DNA of 13,992 nt from an uncultured archaeon (GTDB lineage: Archaea > Asgardarchaeota > Heimdallarchaeia > Hodarchaeales > Hodarchaeaceae): positions 1-13,992 of the forward strand of contig CAZALJ010000016.1 in the NCBI GenBank assembly GCA_964485715.1. The letters are read 5' to 3'. Below the pieces are notes generated by a model. The model made no database searches, was not told the origin of the DNA, and was given only the letters and a program-made list of their open reading frames with translations. Shown here piece by piece: positions 1 to 13,920 of this stretch. How positions within the stretch are numbered: position 1 is the first letter of the stretch; the number at the start of each line of letters is the position of its first letter. A program made the position numbers and the translations under genes.

Positions 1-1230
1 TACAACACTACTCCAACTGAAAAACCCCTGACTCCTGATGACACAATCTACATTGGATACACACTAGCTCTCGATCAACTAATTAATGGTATAAACACAC
101 TAATAACCGACCGTGGTTACGATGCTATTCCGAAATATGACGTTGAAACCTCATTTGAAGTTGTAGGCGAAAACGAAATTCATTTTGGAATTAATTACAC
201 TAATATGGTGACATTTTGGCAAAAAGCACACGAGAGCGCTTATAACCCACTTAAAGATATTCCAAAAGATTTGTTAAGAGGTAATATTGAAAAATTATTG
301 GCAATGGTTGCAGGATTTCACGCAGCAACAGTATTTGACTACCTAGCTTTTGACTACGAAGTAACATGGTCTGAGACAACTGAAGGTGAAGTTACAGAAG
401 TTAAAACCGACATTGTCACTCATTACAATATTGGGGAAGTCAGCTGGTTATTCACAATAGCCTCTGGATCTCCAATTGACTCAAAATACACTAATTCATT
501 CAATGACTCAATAACTTATGAAATTGAGTTACCTGGAGCTGGTTTGCCCGTTCCCATTCTAGGAACTATTCCTGATAATCTATCTCACGTGTTTATGGTC
601 GAAGCTTACCCATCTGATGATGCACAAGCCCGTATAAATGATGCAAACGGGTTTGGTTTCGCTGTAATGACACAGACTCATTCTTATGGATTGAATTTCA
701 AGGATATGATCTGGGATGATGGAAATCTGACTATTTCAGCAGAGGATGACTTTATAACTTCTTTTGTCGGAAAAGACACCTACAAATTAAAGGGTGTTGA
801 AGAACTTGGTTTCGATGAAGATCTTGATCGCGATGTTAGTTTTCTTGCCAAACACCATTCAAATATGGCTCATGCAACAACTCCCCTAGTCAAAGGATAT
901 TTGGATATTTCTCACGAACTCTATCACGACTTTATCAAGTGGATACTCGAAGATGGATTTGGTTATCAAGAAACCTATGCTTACAGAGCTGAGCAGGCAA
1001 AATATTTGACCATCACTCAGTTTGGTGATTGGGTTGGCGGAGAAATCATCCATGACCCCGCGTATTCTGCCGTTGCTGCAATGGCTGCTGTTACTGAAGA
1101 ATCAAGTACAGCAACAGAGACTAGTGGGACTGAAACTGGGACTGATGGTGGTATTCCAGGATTCGAGATTCTCTCTGTCTTATTGACAATTCCTCCTCTG
1201 TATGCATTGTACCGCAAACGACGCCATTAA
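1..1230 (+). CDS. Secreted/surface protein, 5'-truncated by the window edge, with C-terminal Thr/Ser/Glu-rich linker and PGF-CTERM archaeosortase sorting signal
   Basis: Frame 1 is open from nt 1, so the listed ATG at 205 is probably internal. The C-terminus reads TEESSTATETSGTETGTDGG-IPGF-EILSVLLTIPPLYALY-RKRRH. That is a PGF motif, a hydrophobic helix and a basic tail, the tripartite PGF-CTERM architecture. Stop codon at 1228-1230. Confidence 0.8.
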   Translation, partial: YNTTPTEKPLTPDDTIYIGYTLALDQLINGINTLITDRGYDAIPKYDVETSFEVVGENEIHFGINYTNMVTFWQKAHESAYNPLKDIPKDLLRGNIEKLLAMVAGFHAATVFDYLAFDYEVTWSETTEGEVTEVKTDIVTHYNIGEVSWLFTIASGSPIDSKYTNSFNDSITYEIELPGAGLPVPILGTIPDNLSHVFMVEAYPSDDAQARINDANGFGFAVMTQTHSYGLNFKDMIWDDGNLTISAEDDFITSFVGKDTYKLKGVEELGFDEDLDRDVSFLAKHHSNMAHATTPLVKGYLDISHELYHDFIKWILEDGFGYQETYAYRAEQAKYLTITQFGDWVGGEIIHDPAYSAVAAMAAVTEESSTATETSGTETGTDGGIPGFEILSVLLTIPPLYALYRKRRH

Positions 1231-1552: not shown

Positions 1553-4168
1553 ATGGTATCAATTGACCCCTTAATGGAACCTACTAACCTTTTTGTCTCT
1601 GTACTTCTAACTTTCTCCCCCATAATCATATTATTCTTCCCTTATCTCTATACGCGGCGAAAAGGTGAAAACCTTTTAGCAATCATCTTTAATCGTGCTT
1701 ACATTGGGTTTATCATCTTCTACTTTGCGTATTTTATTTTTCCTAGTTTTTTGAACTATATTGTGCCAAATCCGACTCAATATTTGGATCAGGAATATTA
1801 TTCTGTTCCAGGTACAAATGATTATAGCACCAAATGGGATTCAGCTGCCAGTCCCGCGGCCGTGACACTCCCAGGAGTGCCCATGTTGTTTAGATATTTA
1901 ATTCAACATTTTGTGAATTCAATTGTACTCTACCTAACTTATCCTATTATAATTCTAGCTTTTGTTTTCGGTATTTCTCCGATTCTCTCTATGCTAATAC
2001 TGTTGTACCAAACTTGGGGTGAGAAAAGGGCAGAACGAAGACCTTTAAAGCGATTAATCAAAAATAATATTGATGAAATTAAGAGTTTTCAGAAACAGCG
2101 TAAAAAAGCAACTGAAAACGAGATTCTGGAGATTGACCGAGAAATTAGCGATTTGGAAAAAGATAAAATCGATTTGGAACAGCAATTGAAAGAAATTCGT
2201 AGCATTACCCAACGATTACAAGAAATCCAGTTTGAAATGGAAGTCTCACCTTTTCAAGAAATCAGAAAACGGGTGAAAGATAAGAATTGGGAGAATGAAA
2301 AAGAACTTCTGAAAGTGCTTATTGCCATCCTTCCCATTACACTTTTTCTTCTTATGACAATTTTGCAACTACTGGGGGAAACTGAAAATCCGAGCTTGTT
2401 ACAAGGCACTTCAATGGGATGGTTCTTAGAAATATTTTTTGCTTACATAGCTTCAATCGTTTTCTGCGTTTACCTCATTAAAGCGAGTAACTTGTCACGA
2501 AAGGGTAAATTCTTAGGAAATCAACTGTATATCGCAATGGTTCAGAGTCTATCGACTGTAGGTGCGATTATGTCGGGTTTAGCCGTTGTCCTCTTCCTGG
2601 CCTTGTGGCCCAATCAGATTTTTGTAATTTCTTATTTCGTGGTATATTTCATAATGGTTTCAATATTCTTTGTGCTTTTTCTGGATATTTTCGAACCATT
2701 TTCAATTTACTTGCTAATCAAATTTATTGAAACTTTTAAAAATCTCAAATTGGCATTAAAACGAGTTAATATCGCTGATGTCGCAAAATCAGTCGTAATG
2801 GGAGTGATTTTTGGTTTCCTTCTAGCTGCTGGTTTTCTTACATACCGTGCTATTATGGAAGGCCAATTCACATATATTGACCACGTTCAATACGATACTT
2901 TCTTTTGGTTCACGCAGAATTATTCTACTTTTTTCCTATGTGCGTTATTAATTTTATTTATTCGAAGATGGAATTGGAGTATAGTTGGAACCGTAGTAAT
3001 TACATATTTTTCGATGCTCGTTGTTAGCTTCATTATCTTTGGATGGTATAATTTAGAATGGTGGGACGCGTTAGGTTTCGATGATTCATTTTTCTTTGTT
3101 CGAGTGAGGAGGCTTCCTAAACCCCCTGTTACCTTAATCCCTCCTTTTACCACTTTGAACTTCTTTTTTGCTATCTTTACAAAGGAAAAACTAAACTGGC
3201 TAACGTCGGTTTGGAAAGAAGGCCTCTTTAACGATGTACAATTTATCATCCCAGAATTGCGTCAGGTTCCTGTGGTCTGGAAAGGAACGGTAGGATCAAC
3301 CTTTCTTGGACTTCTATCCGTTCCATATAATCTTATACATCCTTTTGCCATTATATTGACATACGGCGCTATTTTTTTCTTAGTTAAACAAAAATTCCAT
3401 GTCAGAACACAGAAAAGCGACAAGGAAGGAGAGGAAAAAATACAATACAAGTCGGTCTTTTCTGAGATAGGAAGACTTCCAAATTTAAGTGAATTGAAGA
3501 GTAAATCGGATATCATTCTGGTTGGAGCAAATCCTATTGATGATCCTGAATTAAACCAAAGGATAGACGAAGCCTGGTTAAAGATGGAAAAAGGACAGCA
3601 GTTACGTGGTGTGATTACTGGAAAAATAGAACCCCTAAATGAAATAACAAGTAAGAGTGGATTAACTCTTGTTGAGATCCATCGTATTTTAGATGAATTA
3701 ACTTTTGATCTCGAGATCCCATTCAATCAAGTTCTTACTTTACTGCACAGAGAATTTTCCTACTTCTTTGAAGAGGTGACAATTGACTCGCTCCACATAA
3801 TGATGCTTGATGGACGTGCTGTATTATCACACACTTTTGCAACTGAGTCTCTAGTTGAACCAGCGTTAGTAGCTGGTCTTTTTTCTGCCATCACTTCTTT
3901 TGCGAAAGAAGCAGTACGGAGTGAACAATTATTAAAGACCATTGACCATGGTGACGTGGTTCTAACCATAGAATATGCAAGGTGGGTTTTTGCTGCCATT
4001 TTTGCAGATAGTACCTCCACTGAGCTGCGTAAAAAGCTTGGTGAGTTTCTAACAGGTTTTGAGGAGAGACATGCTAAGACTCTTCCAATGTGGTTAGGTG
4101 ATCTTGATGTTTTTAAAGGGGATCTAGAATTCATAGACAAGACATTCTCTAGTGGAGGAACAACTTAA
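1553..4168 (+). CDS. Large polytopic membrane protein with an internal coiled coil and a cytoplasmic C-terminal wHTH-like segment plus longin/roadblock-like domain; function unknown
   Basis: 871-aa ORF. There are many hydrophobic 20-25 aa segments, about 4 before residue 160 and about 10 between residues 250 and 620. A charged heptad-like stretch spans residues ~165-235 (KSFQKQRKKATENEILEIDREISDLEKDKIDLEQQLKEIRSITQRLQEIQ). The soluble tail runs from ~residue 620 and ends in a beta-beta-alpha-beta-beta-alpha patterned domain (nt ~3782-4150). Confidence 0.85.
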   Translation: MVSIDPLMEPTNLFVSVLLTFSPIIILFFPYLYTRRKGENLLAIIFNRAYIGFIIFYFAYFIFPSFLNYIVPNPTQYLDQEYYSVPGTNDYSTKWDSAASPAAVTLPGVPMLFRYLIQHFVNSIVLYLTYPIIILAFVFGISPILSMLILLYQTWGEKRAERRPLKRLIKNNIDEIKSFQKQRKKATENEILEIDREISDLEKDKIDLEQQLKEIRSITQRLQEIQFEMEVSPFQEIRKRVKDKNWENEKELLKVLIAILPITLFLLMTILQLLGETENPSLLQGTSMGWFLEIFFAYIASIVFCVYLIKASNLSRKGKFLGNQLYIAMVQSLSTVGAIMSGLAVVLFLALWPNQIFVISYFVVYFIMVSIFFVLFLDIFEPFSIYLLIKFIETFKNLKLALKRVNIADVAKSVVMGVIFGFLLAAGFLTYRAIMEGQFTYIDHVQYDTFFWFTQNYSTFFLCALLILFIRRWNWSIVGTVVITYFSMLVVSFIIFGWYNLEWWDALGFDDSFFFVRVRRLPKPPVTLIPPFTTLNFFFAIFTKEKLNWLTSVWKEGLFNDVQFIIPELRQVPVVWKGTVGSTFLGLLSVPYNLIHPFAIILTYGAIFFLVKQKFHVRTQKSDKEGEEKIQYKSVFSEIGRLPNLSELKSKSDIILVGANPIDDPELNQRIDEAWLKMEKGQQLRGVITGKIEPLNEITSKSGLTLVEIHRILDELTFDLEIPFNQVLTLLHREFSYFFEEVTIDSLHIMMLDGRAVLSHTFATESLVEPALVAGLFSAITSFAKEAVRSEQLLKTIDHGDVVLTIEYARWVFAAIFADSTSTELRKKLGEFLTGFEERHAKTLPMWLGDLDVFKGDLEFIDKTFSSGGTT

Positions 4169-4255
4169 TCTACTAGATTCCTAATCACTACAAGAGAAGT
4201 TTAAACAACGTAGTACATACTTCAACATACTTTCTCAAAAATGGTCACTAGAAAG

Positions 4256-4275
4256 CCCCTGAATTCTTTCAGGGG
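4256..4275 (+). other. Perfect 8-bp hairpin (cccctgaa / ttcagggg, loop ttct) in the intergenic region between the membrane-protein gene and the radical SAM gene
   Basis: Hand pairing of 4256-4263 with 4268-4275. The role (3' end structure or 5' regulatory element) is unknown. A TATA-like cctataaatc lies at 4307-4316, upstream of the ATG at 4343. Confidence 0.3.
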
Positions 4276-4342
4276 TCATTAATTCCATAAAAATAACTTG
4301 AGCGTCCTATAAATCAAGATTTTAAGGAAGTAAAATCAATAC

Positions 4343-5746
4343 ATGTCTGAAGAAAAAGTTTTGCTTATATTTCCTCCAGACAATTGGGGTAATATAGATC
4401 GCTTTTGCCAACCATTAGGCATTTTGATGTTAGCAACCATCCTCAAACAAGAAGGAATTGATGTCGTTGTTGTTGATCTTTCTGCAGAGGGGTGGTATCC
4501 TAAAAAATTAGCAAAATTCATCTCTGATGGTGGTTTTACTCATGTAGGTGTCACAGTTATGACACCATTTCGCAATGTAGCATATTCTATTTTGCAAATT
4601 GCTAAGAAAATAAACCCAAATATTACAACCTTAGTAGGAGGTCCCCATGTAACATATATGAAAGAACGAATTTTTTCGGAGTGTTCAGTTATTGATATTG
4701 CGGTGGCAGGAGAGGCAGAACTGAAAATAGTTGATATTATACGTGTACCAACAAAGAAATTTTATGATTTGAGTTATATAAAAGATATTGATAGTTTACC
4801 AATCCCTGATCGCAGTTTTGTGAGACATCTCAATTATGATCGGATGACAAACATTTGGATAGGCGACTCTGCAAGCATGAACTGGATACGAGGTTGTTCA
4901 TGGCGAAGATGTCGTTTTTGTAGCCGAGATGCGTTGACTATAAGTCATCGTCGCCGGAGTCCCAAAAAAATCGTTGAGGAAATAGCCATTATTCAAAATG
5001 AACTGAATTATAAGAATATTATCGTAATTGACGATAGTCTTAAAGTTAAATCAAAACATACTAAAGAGGTTCTACGCTTAAAAATTAAGGAAGGTCTAGA
5101 TATTCCTTTTTGGGCATTAGCTCGTGCAGACCATATAGATGAAGAGGGAGCCCATCTTATGAGACGAGCTGGCGCTACTGGTCTTTTAGTCGGATTAGAA
5201 TCAGTTGTGCCACGTATCATTGATATGTATAAGAAGATTAGCGGAAATCCTCATCATTGGCATCGAACACTTGACCGAACGTTGGAACTAGCAAACAAAT
5301 ATCAATTAATTATAATAGCTACATTCATCGTAGGTGGCCCAAACGAAACAGCCAAAGAAATGCGGATAACATTTGATTATTGTCGTACAGCGGGGCTAGA
5401 TATAGTCCAGCCATTTCCATTTCAATATGCAATAGGGTCAGATTTATGGCGTGAAGCCGTCCAGAAGGGGGAGATTAGCCCGACTCAATATTACACATAT
5501 AACGATAAAAGTTATGGGACTACAGAATTCACCACGGATGAAATCTTTGGCCTAGCTATGAAGGCTGAGTATCTCATTAATTCTCCTATCGTAAATCCGA
5601 AACGATATTTTCGTTTAATTCGAAAACTAGTTAAACAGAAGAATTGGTCACTCATAGGACAAAATCTCATCCGATTACCTTTCATAATTAAAGATGTGTG
5701 GAAACAACATCCTTATGAGATGGTTCCACAAGATCTCCACGGATAA
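4343..5746 (+). CDS. B12-binding-domain-containing (class B-like) radical SAM protein
   Basis: The N-terminus (VLLIFPP...PLGILMLATILKQEGIDVVVVDL...GVTVMTP) looks like the Rossmann-like cobalamin-binding domain fused to radical SAM enzymes. The Cys cluster is GCSWRRCRFC (nt 4895-4921). Downstream are TIM-barrel-like motifs (IVIDDS, GLESV, FIVGGPNET). Confidence 0.85.
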   Translation: MSEEKVLLIFPPDNWGNIDRFCQPLGILMLATILKQEGIDVVVVDLSAEGWYPKKLAKFISDGGFTHVGVTVMTPFRNVAYSILQIAKKINPNITTLVGGPHVTYMKERIFSECSVIDIAVAGEAELKIVDIIRVPTKKFYDLSYIKDIDSLPIPDRSFVRHLNYDRMTNIWIGDSASMNWIRGCSWRRCRFCSRDALTISHRRRSPKKIVEEIAIIQNELNYKNIIVIDDSLKVKSKHTKEVLRLKIKEGLDIPFWALARADHIDEEGAHLMRRAGATGLLVGLESVVPRIIDMYKKISGNPHHWHRTLDRTLELANKYQLIIIATFIVGGPNETAKEMRITFDYCRTAGLDIVQPFPFQYAIGSDLWREAVQKGEISPTQYYTYNDKSYGTTEFTTDEIFGLAMKAEYLINSPIVNPKRYFRLIRKLVKQKNWSLIGQNLIRLPFIIKDVWKQHPYEMVPQDLHG

Positions 5747-5776
5747 CATCCGAATCTCTCCCCTTAACCTTCAGAT

Positions 5777-8413
5777 TCACATATCAACTTCCCCGATAAT
5801 GAGACTGTAATCCCCAGATTTTAATTTTGCGATAGAACTAATGATTGTAGTGAGATCTGTTCTCAAGGTTATTTTCACCCCATTTAAGGGATTTGCAGTT
5901 CTATTATGTAGTATAAATCCTTTTTGAGTCATTAATGTGGCCCAGCGTACCAAATCTGATTCGGAATAAGTTACTGAACGAACTGAGTTGGCTTTAATAC
6001 TGAATTCGGACTCAAAAATTAGGTTTCGTTCTAAAATATCCGATATAAGAGAGTCTGGAAGAGAACTCACTTCTATGTCAGGAATTAGCTCAGTAAGCCA
6101 GTTAATGTCAACCTCCTCATCAGATATATACTCTAATGACTCGGTAATTGAATGAAATGTTGCTGGCTCTTCCTCTTCAAATTCTGGTCCTTTTAACCTT
6201 ATCTGCTGCAGCTCTTCTGAAGGAAGTGGAGTGACGAAGGATGGTAAGGTTCGATTTTGATCCACAAGAATTAGAAGACCATCACGAAGAAATGAGATGA
6301 CAACTTCAGTAATTTTCCGATAACTGTAATCTGAATCCAGAAGACATTGACTAACGATCTCTATCGCAAAAAGGCCCTCGGTTATCGCAAGCTGGTCTAT
6401 TTGTTTGCTAATAATTTCATACAATGCAGGATGAGAAATTTCTTCTTTAAAAGAACGGTTTATCTGGAGGGGGGTTATCAAGGATAAGCCTAAATGCTGA
6501 TCAAGAAGTTTTATAGCTGGGGCAAAATCGTCAAGAATTCCAACGAATTCTTCTAGTTTAGTACGGAACTCTGTTTCGAGAGCATAAGAAAAATTTCTGA
6601 TCCGTCGTTTAAAGTCGTTTAAATATTTTGGAGTCCGATCTAGGATAACAGCAGTAACAGAGTTGGCACCTTCTACTGTGACGATTTTAAAAGCACGATC
6701 TCCGATTTCTTCTGTGAATTCTCGTAAGATTGTACGTTTCTTAACGATGTCGCTTTTAAGTTCACTAAAGAGCCCTGAAATTGCGCTTAGAAATCCCGAA
6801 ACTAGTTGAGGATCTATTTTCAACATAGTTATTCCAAGTTCGAAGATGCAAATACCTGTTGTCTTATGAAGAATTAAAATATGTCTACAAGTAAGTAAAT
6901 TCGTCAGATCTCTATAATTAAATGGTTCAACATCAATAGAGAGAGATTCGATTTCATCTCGATCAATATCAAAAGAATCCAATGTCGTTGTTCCTGATTC
7001 ATCCCTAGATATATCAGAGATTGATTTCCTAGATTCTCTATATCGGGGGATATTAATAGGCATTTCATCTTCTTGAGGATCAATATGTTTTGATAAACGA
7101 GGGCGTACTCGAATTTTAACCGGATGTTGGCTCCTTCTTTGAAATCCTACAATTAAAGCGTCTCCCCGAACAAGATGAGGAAGTATTGACACTATTTCGG
7201 TGCTTATTCCTTCCATTAACCTAATTTTGGTGAGATCTTTATCAGATCTTATTCTTAGCGCAATTAATGTGTTCATATTTGCAATAATGTTATCTGGAAA
7301 ATCAGCAGGTCGCTGTGAGATGAGAATCTCATAAATACCAAATTTTCGTCCCTCACGAGCAATTCGAGGGAGGATCTCGTTTGTAGCAGCGAATCGATGT
7401 GCTTCTTCAATAACAAGCACAATTTCATTCTCTCGTGCTAAATCACCATGTATTTTCTTTTCAAATACCTGAGTCAGGATTTCATTAACTAAGAGATTCC
7501 GTTTTCGTTCGTCAACAAACTGATCTAGACGGACAATTGAGATCTGTCCTGGACGGATAAGGGCATCTAAATCGAGTTCTTTTTCGAAAAGATTCAAGTT
7601 TTTAAGAGAGTAAATCTTTGAAATTAAAGTTTCTCTCGTGGAACTATGAATATTGGAATCTTGAATCAGCAAAATTAATTCTTCTAGTAAAATGGGTTTT
7701 TTAACGATATTCAACAGTGAATTCTCTTGCGCAGCTGTTAAATCGATTAACCTACGCAATCGTGGTAAATTGAAACGTTTTTCAAGTCCTAAGGAGTCTT
7801 TTTCAAAAATTAAGATGTTGTCCTGGAATCCACGAGGAGAATATCCCTCATAATCTAGCTGCTCAATCTCAGGACCATCATTTGGTTGAGCTAAACCCCA
7901 ATATTCGTTGTGGATATCGAATAATAGGACAGCAGCAGACTTAAACTTCATAATAATTTCTTCTAATAATACACCAACACTGTACGATTTTCCTGCGCCA
8001 GTACTTGCAACACAGAGTACGTGCCGTTCTAGAAATTTAGGTGAGATAAGAAAAGGGTCAGAATTATTGTTAAAAGTAATAACGTCTCCAAGATAAATCC
8101 CTTGGTCACCACGGTAAGAAATAATCTTTGAAACTAGTCCTTTAGGGGGGTGTTGGATTTGAGCTTGGGGAGAAATTGGAAACCTACAGGGTGAAAGCGA
8201 AAAATCTTCAGGGTCAATTTCTCCAAGAATTATAGCAGTTCCCCTTATTTCCTCTCCCTTGGTTTGAATTAAATGGGAAATTTGAGCTAGGTATTGTTTC
8301 TGAGGAGTTTCTTCCGAGTCTATAATCAAAATGAAATCCTGTTCATGAATGGCTGCTTTTATCGGGTCTATAAGGAAAGAAATTTCAGATGTTGAAGACT
8401 TTATTATTTCCAT
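5777..8413 (-). CDS. HerA/DUF87-family (FtsK-HerA superfamily) P-loop ATPase with a long C-terminal extension
   Basis: Walker A is VLCVASTGAGKSYSVG. The HerA-typical motifs are LLFDIHNEYWG, Walker B VLVIEEAHRFA, and AREGRKFGIYEILISQRPADF. An N-terminal beta-rich (HAS-barrel-like) region precedes the P-loop. The ORF track starts at TTG 8425, and I prefer the in-frame ATG at 8413 (MEIIKSS...). About 400 aa follow the ATPase core (nt 5777-7090). Confidence 0.85.
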   Translation of the reverse strand: MEIIKSSTSEISFLIDPIKAAIHEQDFILIIDSEETPQKQYLAQISHLIQTKGEEIRGTAIILGEIDPEDFSLSPCRFPISPQAQIQHPPKGLVSKIISYRGDQGIYLGDVITFNNNSDPFLISPKFLERHVLCVASTGAGKSYSVGVLLEEIIMKFKSAAVLLFDIHNEYWGLAQPNDGPEIEQLDYEGYSPRGFQDNILIFEKDSLGLEKRFNLPRLRRLIDLTAAQENSLLNIVKKPILLEELILLIQDSNIHSSTRETLISKIYSLKNLNLFEKELDLDALIRPGQISIVRLDQFVDERKRNLLVNEILTQVFEKKIHGDLARENEIVLVIEEAHRFAATNEILPRIAREGRKFGIYEILISQRPADFPDNIIANMNTLIALRIRSDKDLTKIRLMEGISTEIVSILPHLVRGDALIVGFQRRSQHPVKIRVRPRLSKHIDPQEDEMPINIPRYRESRKSISDISRDESGTTTLDSFDIDRDEIESLSIDVEPFNYRDLTNLLTCRHILILHKTTGICIFELGITMLKIDPQLVSGFLSAISGLFSELKSDIVKKRTILREFTEEIGDRAFKIVTVEGANSVTAVILDRTPKYLNDFKRRIRNFSYALETEFRTKLEEFVGILDDFAPAIKLLDQHLGLSLITPLQINRSFKEEISHPALYEIISKQIDQLAITEGLFAIEIVSQCLLDSDYSYRKITEVVISFLRDGLLILVDQNRTLPSFVTPLPSEELQQIRLKGPEFEEEEPATFHSITESLEYISDEEVDINWLTELIPDIEVSSLPDSLISDILERNLIFESEFSIKANSVRSVTYSESDLVRWATLMTQKGFILHNRTANPLNGVKITLRTDLTTIISSIAKLKSGDYSLIIGEVDM

Positions 8414-11737: not shown

Positions 11738-12249
11738 ACTCTATTTACCTTGATCTGATATTTTTTTAAATATTATCATGCAAACATTTTTCACAAATAG
11801 AGAATCAAAAGCGATTTCTATCTCTAATTTTTAGATCATTCACAAAAATGGTCGTCAGGAAGCTCCCAGATTAATTTCAAGCGGGAAGGATGATACACTG
11901 GTATTAGAAACATAAAAAATCGAAATAGAATCAGTGATTCTCTGAAAAAATCTATTAAGAAATCTCATAACAAAAGTGGGAAAAATTAGGGGGGATACAA
12001 AGACATTTGTAGAATAAAGGGTTCTAAAAAAATTTATATTTGAAAAAGGGTGTAATGAACCTTTTTAAGAAGACACTACTAGATAAACATAGGTTGTTCC
12101 ATGTGCAAGTACCTCTCGTTGCATATCCCTGACCTGAAGAAGATTCAGCAGCCACTAAAAAAATCATTGGGCCTCCAAATTTTCCCCCTTCCTAGAGCTC
12201 AAAATGTACTACAAATTGTTGAAACGACTTGGAAAAAGGAGGGATTAGA

Positions 12250-13920
12250 TTGAATGTGACTGATGTTATATTACATGGAAGACAAGTTCTTTCTAATCCT
12301 TTGAATAATAATATCGTCAAATTCATTTATAAATGGAATAATTATGTTATGGGTGGTGGAGAGATTAATATTAACATGATGGAAATATTTAATGAGATAA
12401 TTACAAGTTATGAACAGGATCTCGTTTTTAGAATTGTAAAAAAAGGAGAACCTATACTATTAAGGAACTACCTCCACTATACTGATTTAATATATAATCT
12501 TAGAAATTTTTTACGAACAACTCAAGGTCCACGAATTATTTTCGGAACATGGAAAGATTTCATGGAGGGTAAAATAATGTGGAAAATCGAATATAATGGA
12601 GGAATATTTTATGTGAGGAAGACCTCGGCATTTGTAAATTATTTTCCGAAAGATTATTGGAATAAAGGTCATAGGGGAAGGATTTTTTCTGATCTATTCT
12701 TCGAAAAGGCAGATATTGGATTTAGAGGTGATACAAGAATAGCAAAATCTATTAGAAGAATAATAAAAGATCAAATTCCAGAACTAAAAGGGAAAAACTT
12801 CCAAGGATCTGTTTATAAGTTGAAATATAGCAAAAACACAATTTATGAACTAATGACTTTAATATGGAATAGAAAAGTAGCAGAATTACCCTCTGAATTT
12901 GCAGATGGTAATTTCTTTAAAAGATTTACAGTTACTCGGCAACCTTTCACATTAGGAGGTTCCGATTTTCAATTTCAAATATTTCATGGCAGTAACAAAT
13001 CAATAGAAACCGATATAAAAAGAAAAATCATAGAAATAGCAAAAAAAACAAACACGTGGGATGAAGTCAGAAAAAACGTTGATATTCCCAAATTTGTGAA
13101 GAAATTTGATACGTCTAGTTTAATAAAATGGTTGAAGAAGGTTATTTTAAATAAAGTTTCTTATAAAGGAATTATGATAACTGTAGAGCATGTCAGAAGT
13201 CTTGGATTTGATATTGATACTGAACTTTTATGGTCTAGTGAATACGAGTTACACAAAGTTGCTGCAGGGGCACTGAAAGACTTTAACATTAGGAAAATGC
13301 TGGGATATACCACTCCAAGTGATGATATTAATGTTAAATATGGATCTCTCGGATATTTGCTTAGTAATCCAGACATTGTTACCATTTTTAATTTAAGAGG
13401 TAAAAAGGTATCTAAAGAAGTCATTGAAATAAAAGTACTGGAAAATAGATCTTCACGAGTTCATCCCTCAGAATTTCTCGCTAATTTACTACTAAGTAAA
13501 GGTTATATTACAAGTCAAGAAGGAAGCAGTATTGGGAAATCATTATTCTTTGTTAAGCATGATGATCCTTTATTACGTGGTACAACAGTAGGCAAAACGT
13601 TGAAAGGAAAAGCTAGTGCTTTAATATTTATTGATTTTGATGAAAGTGGCCCAGCACGTTTTGCTGAAATCTTCAACGAGGTAAGATTAGAATATTTTGG
13701 AAAAAGAAGAATACCTACAGGATCGCTTTATACAAAATTAATCAAAAGACTGCAAGAGAGTTCCTCTGCTTATGGATTAGATTTAGTAAATTTAGATGAT
13801 ATCATGATAAAAAAGCTCGTCTCGAAATTCCAGGAAATAGCAATAAAAAACCGTAAAACTCAATATACATTCATATTAGAAGTTTTACTATACTGTATTT
13901 TCGAAAACTTTTCTTCCTAA
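12250..13920 (+). CDS. Hypothetical protein (orphan by eye) with a possible C-terminal PD-(D/E)xK nuclease-like motif
   Basis: A long uninterrupted ORF, open from TTG 12229. GGAGGG at 12238-12243 sits 6 nt upstream of TTG 12250 and 12 nt upstream of GTG 12256, so one of these is the likely start. The first in-frame ATG is 40 codons further in. The protein is rich in Lys, Asn and Ile. The motif NPDIVTIFNLRGKKVSKEVIEIKV lies at nt 13366-13437. Confidence 0.7.
   Translation: MNVTDVILHGRQVLSNPLNNNIVKFIYKWNNYVMGGGEININMMEIFNEIITSYEQDLVFRIVKKGEPILLRNYLHYTDLIYNLRNFLRTTQGPRIIFGTWKDFMEGKIMWKIEYNGGIFYVRKTSAFVNYFPKDYWNKGHRGRIFSDLFFEKADIGFRGDTRIAKSIRRIIKDQIPELKGKNFQGSVYKLKYSKNTIYELMTLIWNRKVAELPSEFADGNFFKRFTVTRQPFTLGGSDFQFQIFHGSNKSIETDIKRKIIEIAKKTNTWDEVRKNVDIPKFVKKFDTSSLIKWLKKVILNKVSYKGIMITVEHVRSLGFDIDTELLWSSEYELHKVAAGALKDFNIRKMLGYTTPSDDINVKYGSLGYLLSNPDIVTIFNLRGKKVSKEVIEIKVLENRSSRVHPSEFLANLLLSKGYITSQEGSSIGKSLFFVKHDDPLLRGTTVGKTLKGKASALIFIDFDESGPARFAEIFNEVRLEYFGKRRIPTGSLYTKLIKRLQESSSAYGLDLVNLDDIMIKKLVSKFQEIAIKNRKTQYTFILEVLLYCIFENFSS

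Follow-up and report, generated by a model that had tools for sequence, protein, structure and literature searches.

Why should the same small domain sit at the end of a polytopic membrane protein and in the middle of a HerA-like ATPase encoded two genes away? This question is raised by a stretch of 13,992 nucleotides (contig CAZALJ010000016.1), the whole of which we refer to as the window. We assign the window to an Asgard archaeon on sequence grounds, because the annotations of its close homologues name Hodarchaeales or Heimdallarchaeota. According to one proposal, no other archaea are more closely related to eukaryotes than Hodarchaeales, and longin domains belong to the core of the eukaryotic membrane-trafficking machinery. 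An earlier reading made from the sequence alone had noticed the resemblance between the C-terminal tail of the membrane protein (hereafter MEM) and an internal segment of the ATPase (hereafter HerA-longin), had called the shared module longin/roadblock-like and had proposed that it docks the ATPase onto MEM. We found that the same longin-fold domain makes up both segments, that it belongs to a large Asgard family without a Pfam model, and that the two genes form a conserved convergent pair in the Hodarchaeales/Heimdall branch. How the two proteins are connected is a matter of graded probability, and the rival explanations are weighed below with the evidence that bears on each of them.

The gene layout and coordinates of the sequence-only reading were reproduced when we re-checked the open reading frames (ORFs). 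Comparisons at several levels of sensitivity indicate that the MEM tail and residues ~496-656 of the HerA-like protein are homologous. Both motif claims hold on re-reading: the first-helix motifs (EPALVAGLFSAITSFAKE and DPQLVSGFLSAISGLFSE) are identical at 8 of 18 residues, and the pattern F-x4-E-x6-L-x4-G-x-LD-x-F matches the last helix of both segments. In a pairwise BLASTP comparison, MEM residues 768-863 align to HerA residues 537-643 with 24% identity over 107 columns (29.6 bits, E 7e-4). When 9 tail sequences were aligned to 39 HerA-middle sequences with hhalign, the two families matched over 121 columns, including the first strand, with a probability of 96.8% and an E-value of 3.1e-10. 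We also built separate single-family profiles and ran them reciprocally against 1,774 ORFs from 85 related loci. The HerA-middle-only profile retrieved 84 membrane-family proteins and no other ORF at E<=10 (window protein, E 9.6e-7), and the tail-only profile retrieved 23 HerA-like proteins and nothing else (window HerA, E 7e-6). A chance match of amphipathic α/β patterns would be in keeping with a pairwise identity of just 24% and with the lack of any Pfam or PDB sequence match for either segment. It is refuted by the specificity of the reciprocal profiles, by the hhalign result and by the same predicted fold, and we give it a negligible chance.

The assignment of the fold rests on predicted structures, because Pfam and PDB sequence searches gave nothing useful. 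Neither segment matched any Pfam longin-type family (Longin, Clat_adaptor_s, Sybindin, Sedlin, SRX and others) at E<=10, 19 other members of the domain family had no match to the Pfam longin families at E<=0.001-0.01, and PDB profile searches with both segments found no longin. The AlphaFold2 model of the HerA-middle segment (mbb807501fb55) has a predicted local distance difference test (pLDDT) of 80.6 and a predicted template-modelling score of 0.78, and the model of the MEM tail (m8a11d0a8cbcd), built from a joint alignment that included HerA-middle sequences, reaches a pLDDT of 69, that is, moderate confidence. Secondary structure was assigned with DSSP (H, helix; E, strand) as H9-15, E18-25, E31-36, H44-61, E71-79, E82-90, E94-100, H107-124 and H126-130 in the HerA-middle segment, and as E45-52, E57-62, H71-88, E98-100, E103-109, E113-119 and H124-140 in the MEM tail. 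Both models follow the order β-β-α-β-β-β-α-α, which is that of longins. The topology originally read from the hydrophobic pattern was right except after the first helix, where there are three strands and not two.

Foldseek comparisons with the PDB returned longin proteins as the top matches of both segments. Sec22b (1ifq) was matched with a template-modelling (TM) score of 0.67 by the HerA-middle segment and of 0.77-0.78 by the MEM tail (root-mean-square deviation 2.7 Å), the σ subunits of AP1/2/3 were matched at E 1e-4, and VAMP7, ζ-COP, TRAPP (Bet5/Trs23) and Mon1-Ccz1 were found as well. The HerA-middle segment matched AP2 σ, Sec22b, Tca17, VAMP7 and MglB. Roadblock proteins (MglB, LAMTOR and Asgard Roadblock2) came below the longins, with TM scores of 0.3-0.45. 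The models support a longin rather than a roadblock fold for both segments, which narrows the initial longin/roadblock call. Membership in Roadblock/LC7 was considered and rejected, as the only N-terminal helix is short (H9-15), the long helices come after the sheet and there is no match to Robl_LC7/PF03259.

To place the domain in a broader context, we searched 1.84 billion representative proteins with a joint profile in which both subfamilies were mixed. The search returned 1,998 protein clusters at E<=0.001, 559 of them at E<=1e-10. All 10 of the 10 named samples with the domain are Asgard (Heimdall, Hodarchaeales, Thor, Hel, Promethearchaeota and Lokiarchaeum ossiferum). We analyzed the architecture of 153 sequences, namely 147 listed hits, 4 other HerA-longin proteins and the 2 window proteins. 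In 94 of the 153, which are large proteins, the only or the last transmembrane helix is followed by the domain after a median of ~16 residues, and the N-terminal parts contain FG-GAP, NosD β-helix, immunoglobulin (Ig)-like or MG2 domains. The set also includes ~20 MEM homologues and ~12 HerA-like proteins, and PCI, UFM1-ligase-like winged-helix, Ig-like and β-propeller domains are found in combination with the domain. The regions that follow it are of fixed size (~70, ~158, ~270 or ~468 residues). With such an organisation, these proteins may be a class of receptor-like molecules whose cytoplasmic tail is modular (representatives P0137-P0283).

In MEM itself, a hydropathy scan detected ~10-12 hydrophobic or transmembrane segments within residues 13-611 and a charged, coiled-coil-like loop of 104 residues (151-254). 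The C-terminal region is hydrophilic and 260 residues long, and its first part (residues 612 to ~740) is a linker that leads into the longin-like domain. We predict that the tail is cytoplasmic, because of the positively charged loops and of its position after the last transmembrane segment. MEM had no match in Pfam, NCBIfam or PDB sequences, and the search of PDB sequences with the membrane-family profile was likewise empty. Homologues of MEM were found in 85 loci, and the tail is their best-conserved part across Asgard (38-64% identity versus 23-37% in the transmembrane region). In the partner protein the longin domain is as conserved as the ATPase core, so that both longin domains are among the best-conserved parts of their hosts. 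The occurrence of a Heimdall-CTERM neighbour had led us to consider MEM as archaeosortase-like. This candidate found no support, since the transmembrane region has no invariant set of Cys, His or Arg, an assessment made only by reading the invariant columns of the family alignment.

The HerA-like ORF matches Pfam DUF87/HerA with 71 bits (cut-off 23.2). Its Walker A and Walker B motifs read ASTGAGKS and IVLVIEEAH, respectively, and G-x-GKS and EEAH are invariant across 58 HerA-like orthologues. With its catalytic motifs intact, we count the protein as a presumably active ATPase. A profile of the region C-terminal to the longin domain (residues ~659-882) matches all HerA-longin proteins. The longin domain and this region were probably fused to HerA as one unit, because stand-alone proteins of 438-501 residues (P0159, P0193 and P0255) contain both of them and no ATPase.

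The ATPase core did not place the protein in any of the known HerA systems that we considered. It scores 111.6 bits with NCBIfam HerA (NF040819; cut-off 970) and, although NCBIfam CedD (NF053655) aligns to the whole core (residues 107-439), only 62.5 bits with this model (cut-off 600). No NurA, Mre11, Rad50, pilus or conjugation gene was found among the called neighbours in L001-L005 (locus numbers are used here and below where single loci have to be told apart). We therefore rejected a DNA-repair HerA of the HerA-NurA type, given the score below the cut-off and the absence of NurA, Mre11 and Rad50 neighbours in these loci, as well as the Ced DNA-import system, given the low CedD score and a MEM that matches neither NCBIfam nor Pfam. 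An anti-phage system of the HerA-plus-effector type, with MEM as the effector, would explain why PADLOC HerA models match the core (best E 1.2e-36) and why the PDB sequence matches include HerA proteins of defence systems beside HerA 4d2i (E 3.6e-19). However, only the ATPase core, which is generic, is covered by these matches. Known effector genes, such as those for SIR2, DUF4297 or a nuclease, are absent from the vicinity, and MEM and the upstream genes match no PADLOC model. The chromosomal context is moreover stable and vertically inherited across many genomes, unlike a defence island. We rejected this candidate too and consider a role in defence very improbable.

Evidence that connects the two proteins comes from the arrangement of their genes. 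We scanned for the MEM family in one genome per species, obtained 77 loci, called their ORFs and searched them with our own profiles. In 25 fetched loci, which include a few duplicates of the same genome, and in the window, the genes of MEM and HerA-longin are convergent and separated by 6-119 bp. This spacing does not apply to the window and L024, which have a 1.6-kb insert with the radical SAM gene, or to a single disrupted, possibly pseudogenised locus. Because the flanking pterin genes are conserved too, we sought divergent loci. Four divergent pairs (L086, L087, L089 and L093) are again convergent neighbours, with gaps of 7-131 bp, and their proteins are 24-33% (HerA) and 34-50% (MEM) identical to the Hodarchaeales or window versions. 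In L089 and L093 the other flanking genes differ and the pair is retained. A metagenome scan with the divergent HerA C-terminal halves retrieved nothing, and one with the divergent MEM proteins retrieved 3 loci only, all of Hodarchaeales type. Overall, the two genes are convergent neighbours in the four divergent loci and, wherever the flank is long enough, in the loci of Hodarchaeales type, which for one branch bears out the co-occurrence that the sequence-only reading had put forward as a check. Since the genes stay adjacent across deep divergence, MEM and HerA-longin probably work together.

The same survey gave a different answer for the radical SAM gene that lies between the two genes in the window and that the check had included. 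Its orthologues are present in 4 of ~25 loci and absent from ~20 others. They lie downstream of MEM in two of the four (the window and L024) and upstream of it in the other two (L018 and L020). With so few loci and two positions, we rejected the gene as a core component and regard it as an occasional accessory or inserted gene. The other copies (L024, 10290-11693; L018, 8268-9671; L020, 2067-3470) are 75-90% identical. The gene is always directly adjacent to MEM and on the MEM strand, and may have an accessory function with MEM or with the surface-protein operon.

In two loci the pair is split or incomplete. In L001 (4526-5791, 5959-8488 and 8568-11137), both partners are split, MEM into 560 and 177 residues and HerA into 606 and 243 residues; in HerA it is the longin domain that is interrupted, and there is a TnpB/IS605 gene just upstream. 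In L002 (CP070760.1, 9574-10337), the MEM tail alone remains, after a run of N and a putative TnpB-like fragment. These loci reflect either a joint decay of both genes or an assembly error. Genes for an ARPC4-like protein (an Arp2/3 subunit) and for a Robl_LC7 protein occur ~9 kb from the pair in two contigs of Hodarchaeales/Heimdall origin (L003, 21911-22619; L005, 19373-19645).

What could the pair do together? The genes usually found upstream on the MEM strand encode a membrane-anchored double winged-helix protein, a secreted protein of ~540 residues and a Heimdall-CTERM protein of ~590 residues, and these surface-protein genes suggest a link of the pair to the cell surface. We propose that the ring ATPase is joined to MEM by the longin domains, directly or through a shared partner, for a surface-linked membrane process, and we hold this reading tentatively, with slightly less than even confidence. 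By analogy with the eukaryotic adaptor, TRAPP and Mon1-Ccz1 complexes, the two longin domains would act as protein-protein assembly modules. The ring ATPase would be held at the side of MEM that faces the cytoplasm, either by a direct heterotypic pairing of the two domains or by a common partner, and the outcome would be a membrane-bound, ATP-driven machine. The initial argument for docking, namely that the two proteins share a module, has lost some of its force, given the great frequency of the domain in these genomes. Docking is plausible and now has the support of the gene neighbourhood, as the conserved convergent pairing speaks for it; the commonness of the domain, the distance between the two copies and the short MEM type found without HerA speak against it.

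The points that weigh against docking deserve to be set out in full. The longin domain occurs in ~2,000 clusters, and the two copies in the window score 29.6 bits with each other and 68-104 bits with dozens of other architectures. The possible bias of the MEM-tail model towards the fold of the HerA-middle sequences in its alignment must also be borne in mind. The pterin genes PTPS and MptE, too, are found close to the HerA gene at most loci, and part of the adjacency may therefore be inherited synteny. Convergent genes are not co-transcribed. A paralogue of HerA-longin (P0079 in L006) adjoins a TFIIB gene and not MEM, and MEM homologues of 1,137 residues (L008 and L030) have no HerA neighbour. 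Finally, ~59 loci encode a shorter MEM homologue of ~740 residues in a different context, without HerA within 10 kb, and the tail of this short type is nearly identical to that of the window. Because the tail is nearly invariant where HerA is missing, its main partner may not be HerA alone, and is possibly something universal.

Several of these observations would be expected if MEM and HerA-longin made no contact and each longin domain served as a platform for another molecule, most probably a small GTPase of Arf/Rag/Rab type, as the roadblock and longin dimers of MglB, Ragulator, TRAPP and Mon1-Ccz1 do, with adjacency mostly due to synteny or loose co-regulation. Sharing of a domain that is spread over ~2,000 clusters and dozens of architectures is common in these genomes, within the family the two copies are only remotely related, and the MEM tail is conserved in lineages with no adjacent HerA. 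In addition, L006 and L089 contain genes for Arf-family GTPases at a distance of no more than 5-7 kb, and Asgard longin/roadblock proteins have been described as GTPase platforms (PMC10933270; bioRxiv 10.1101/2020.10.19.343400). On the other hand, the two genes remain immediate convergent neighbours in loci whose ATPases are no more than 24-33% identical, even with changed flanks, and the Hodarchaeales loci have no GTPase gene as a regular neighbour. We regard this explanation as the main rival and nevertheless as rather doubtful.

The loci with the short-type MEM contain a further candidate partner. A gene for a protein of 153 residues (fam16) lies convergent and downstream of the short-type MEM in 17 of the 44 loci whose downstream sequence is long enough to tell, and is directly adjacent to it in 7. 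We found no match of fam16 in Pfam or the PDB. With hhalign, it aligns to the broad family profile (probability 89.5%, E 2e-6) and reaches probabilities of 8% and 0.4% with the narrow profiles. Judging from these alignments, fam16 is a probable, not proven, remote member of the longin-like family. Should its membership hold true, a domain encoded beside MEM as its partner may be a recurrent feature, free in one branch and fused to HerA in the other. Upstream of the short-type MEM, a block of genes (L063, 5980-9855, and similar) is conserved in 42-51 loci. It includes genes that we label, putatively and from their sequence, as histone-deacetylase-like and as an ABC ATPase and permease pair, together with a profilin-like gene of ~135 residues (Pfam Profilin E 2.5e-4, below the cut-off).

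Both fam16 and the gene pair bear on another explanation, in which the domains self-associate: the MEM tail would dimerise MEM, and the HerA domain would stabilise or regulate its own hexamer, so that the two proteins could act in one pathway with no longin-longin contact. Roadblock homodimers are indeed common (MglB; Asgard Roadblock2, 9jq8) and both proteins appear in our Foldseek lists, and the combination of longin and C-terminal module exists also without an ATPase (P0159, P0193 and P0255). This explanation leaves the conserved gene pairing unaccounted for, as it does the 153-residue family member downstream of the short MEM, and we think it quite improbable. A bolder version of the docking proposal, which we consider unlikely as a whole, is that the juxtamembrane longin is a general Asgard docking code that links membrane proteins to cytoplasmic machines. 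In this version, heterotypic pairing of longins in the Hodarchaeales/Heimdall branch would place the HerA ring on MEM, where it would drive translocation or surface assembly, the free longin of 153 residues would be the partner elsewhere, and the arrangement would be a prokaryotic forerunner of the logic of eukaryotic adaptors, SNAREs and TRAPP.

The features of the window, and one example of fam16, are listed in Table 1. Further genes of the window encode a thioredoxin-reductase-like protein, PTPS and an MptE-like protein. The start of the HerA-like protein in the NCBI annotation is 4 codons downstream of ours and gives a protein of 878 residues.

Table 1. Coordinates of the features discussed, in the window unless a locus is given
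Feature	Position	Strand	Basis or remark
Upstream surface-protein gene, 3' part	1-1230	+	Secreted; family fam13, ~580-610 residues elsewhere
MEM, polytopic membrane protein, 871 residues	1553-4168	+	ORF and hydropathy
MEM C-terminal longin-fold domain (predicted), residues ~740-866	~3770-4150	+	AlphaFold2, Foldseek
B12-binding radical SAM enzyme	4343-5746	+	Pfam B12-binding and Radical_SAM
HerA-like ATPase, 882 residues	5777-8425	-	Pfam DUF87
HerA-like C-terminal region, residues ~659-882	5777-6451	-	Region profile
HerA-like longin-fold domain (predicted), residues 496-656, short helix before	6458-6940	-	AlphaFold2, Foldseek
HerA/FtsK-type P-loop ATPase core, residues ~110-445	7091-8098	-	Pfam DUF87
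fam16 example	L033 12246-12704	-	153-residue protein; also in 19 other loci

The upstream ORF of 341 residues ends in a Heimdall-CTERM sorting signal (~nt 1150-1227, + strand), which NCBIfam NF045529 detects at residues 316-341 with 31.1 bits (cut-off 24). By ORF clustering, its family fam13 is present in 23 loci, every time upstream of the membrane gene. The family (~590 residues) is a constant upstream of MEM in the Hodarchaeales-type loci, and is found in the same position in L008, L086, L087 and L089. An enzyme that processes the sorting signal was not evident from the fetched loci. At the other end of the window, the G+C content falls to ~0.31 from ~12 kb onward. An ORF of 563 residues there (12229-13920, + strand) matches neither Pfam nor NCBIfam and is missing from all other fetched loci, and the corresponding position in other genomes is taken by MBL-fold and MutS_V genes. 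The segment 11009-13992 may be an inserted foreign segment. Scans of the window for tRNA genes and Rfam families gave no match.

In our search of the literature, neither the longin-polytopic nor the longin-HerA architecture was found described. The main texts of Liu et al., Tran et al. (PMC10933270) and Makarova et al. (PMC11188069) contain no HerA-longin fusion, no polytopic-longin protein, no such pairing and no juxtamembrane position of the domain. The domain family is worth attention in two respects. It is a large Asgard longin-like family without a Pfam model, located mostly just inside the membrane, and merits a curated model. In one branch, a conserved gene pair brings together a membrane protein with a longin tail and a HerA ATPase with a longin domain. 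This defined pair can be used to ask what longins did before eukaryotic trafficking, and in particular whether they formed heterodimers, bound GTPases or brought motors to membranes.

Among the known systems, the crenarchaeal Ced DNA importer, the VirB4/VirD4 ATPases of conjugation and FtsK have ATPases of the same superfamily that cooperate with membrane partners, and a ring is likewise expected here, possibly at the membrane with the polytopic protein. The difference is that recruitment would be achieved by a longin domain, rather than by transmembrane helices or known coupling domains. Roadblock/LC7 proteins (MglB, LAMTOR2/3, dynein light chain and Asgard Roadblock2) have the same α/β core and a Foldseek probability of ~1, whereas the TM scores of 0.3-0.45 and the large root-mean-square deviations set them apart, and in our models the main helices come after the sheet, as in longins. 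The best structural matches are the eukaryotic longins of the same topology (Sec22b, VAMP7, the N-terminal domains of σ- and μ-adaptins, ζ-COP, Bet5/Trs23/Tca17 of TRAPP, Mon1-Ccz1 and SRX), which are assembly modules beside membranes and often heterodimers of two paralogous longin domains. Unlike in these proteins, the fusion partners of the domain are here a HerA ATPase and a membrane protein of 10-12 passes. In Asgard archaea, the Roadblock/LC7 superfamily including longins comprises 130 asCOGs (Asgard clusters of orthologous genes), with lineage-specific fusions to GTPases, Vps28-C, adaptin appendage, Ig-like and helix-turn-helix/PCI domains (bioRxiv 10.1101/2020.10.19.343400; PMC10933270; PMC11188069). 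These multidomain longin/roadblock proteins resemble the present family, which likewise has PCI, winged-helix and Ig-like combinations. Asgard longin fusions as such were therefore already known, and the two host architectures and their conserved pairing are a new variant of them.

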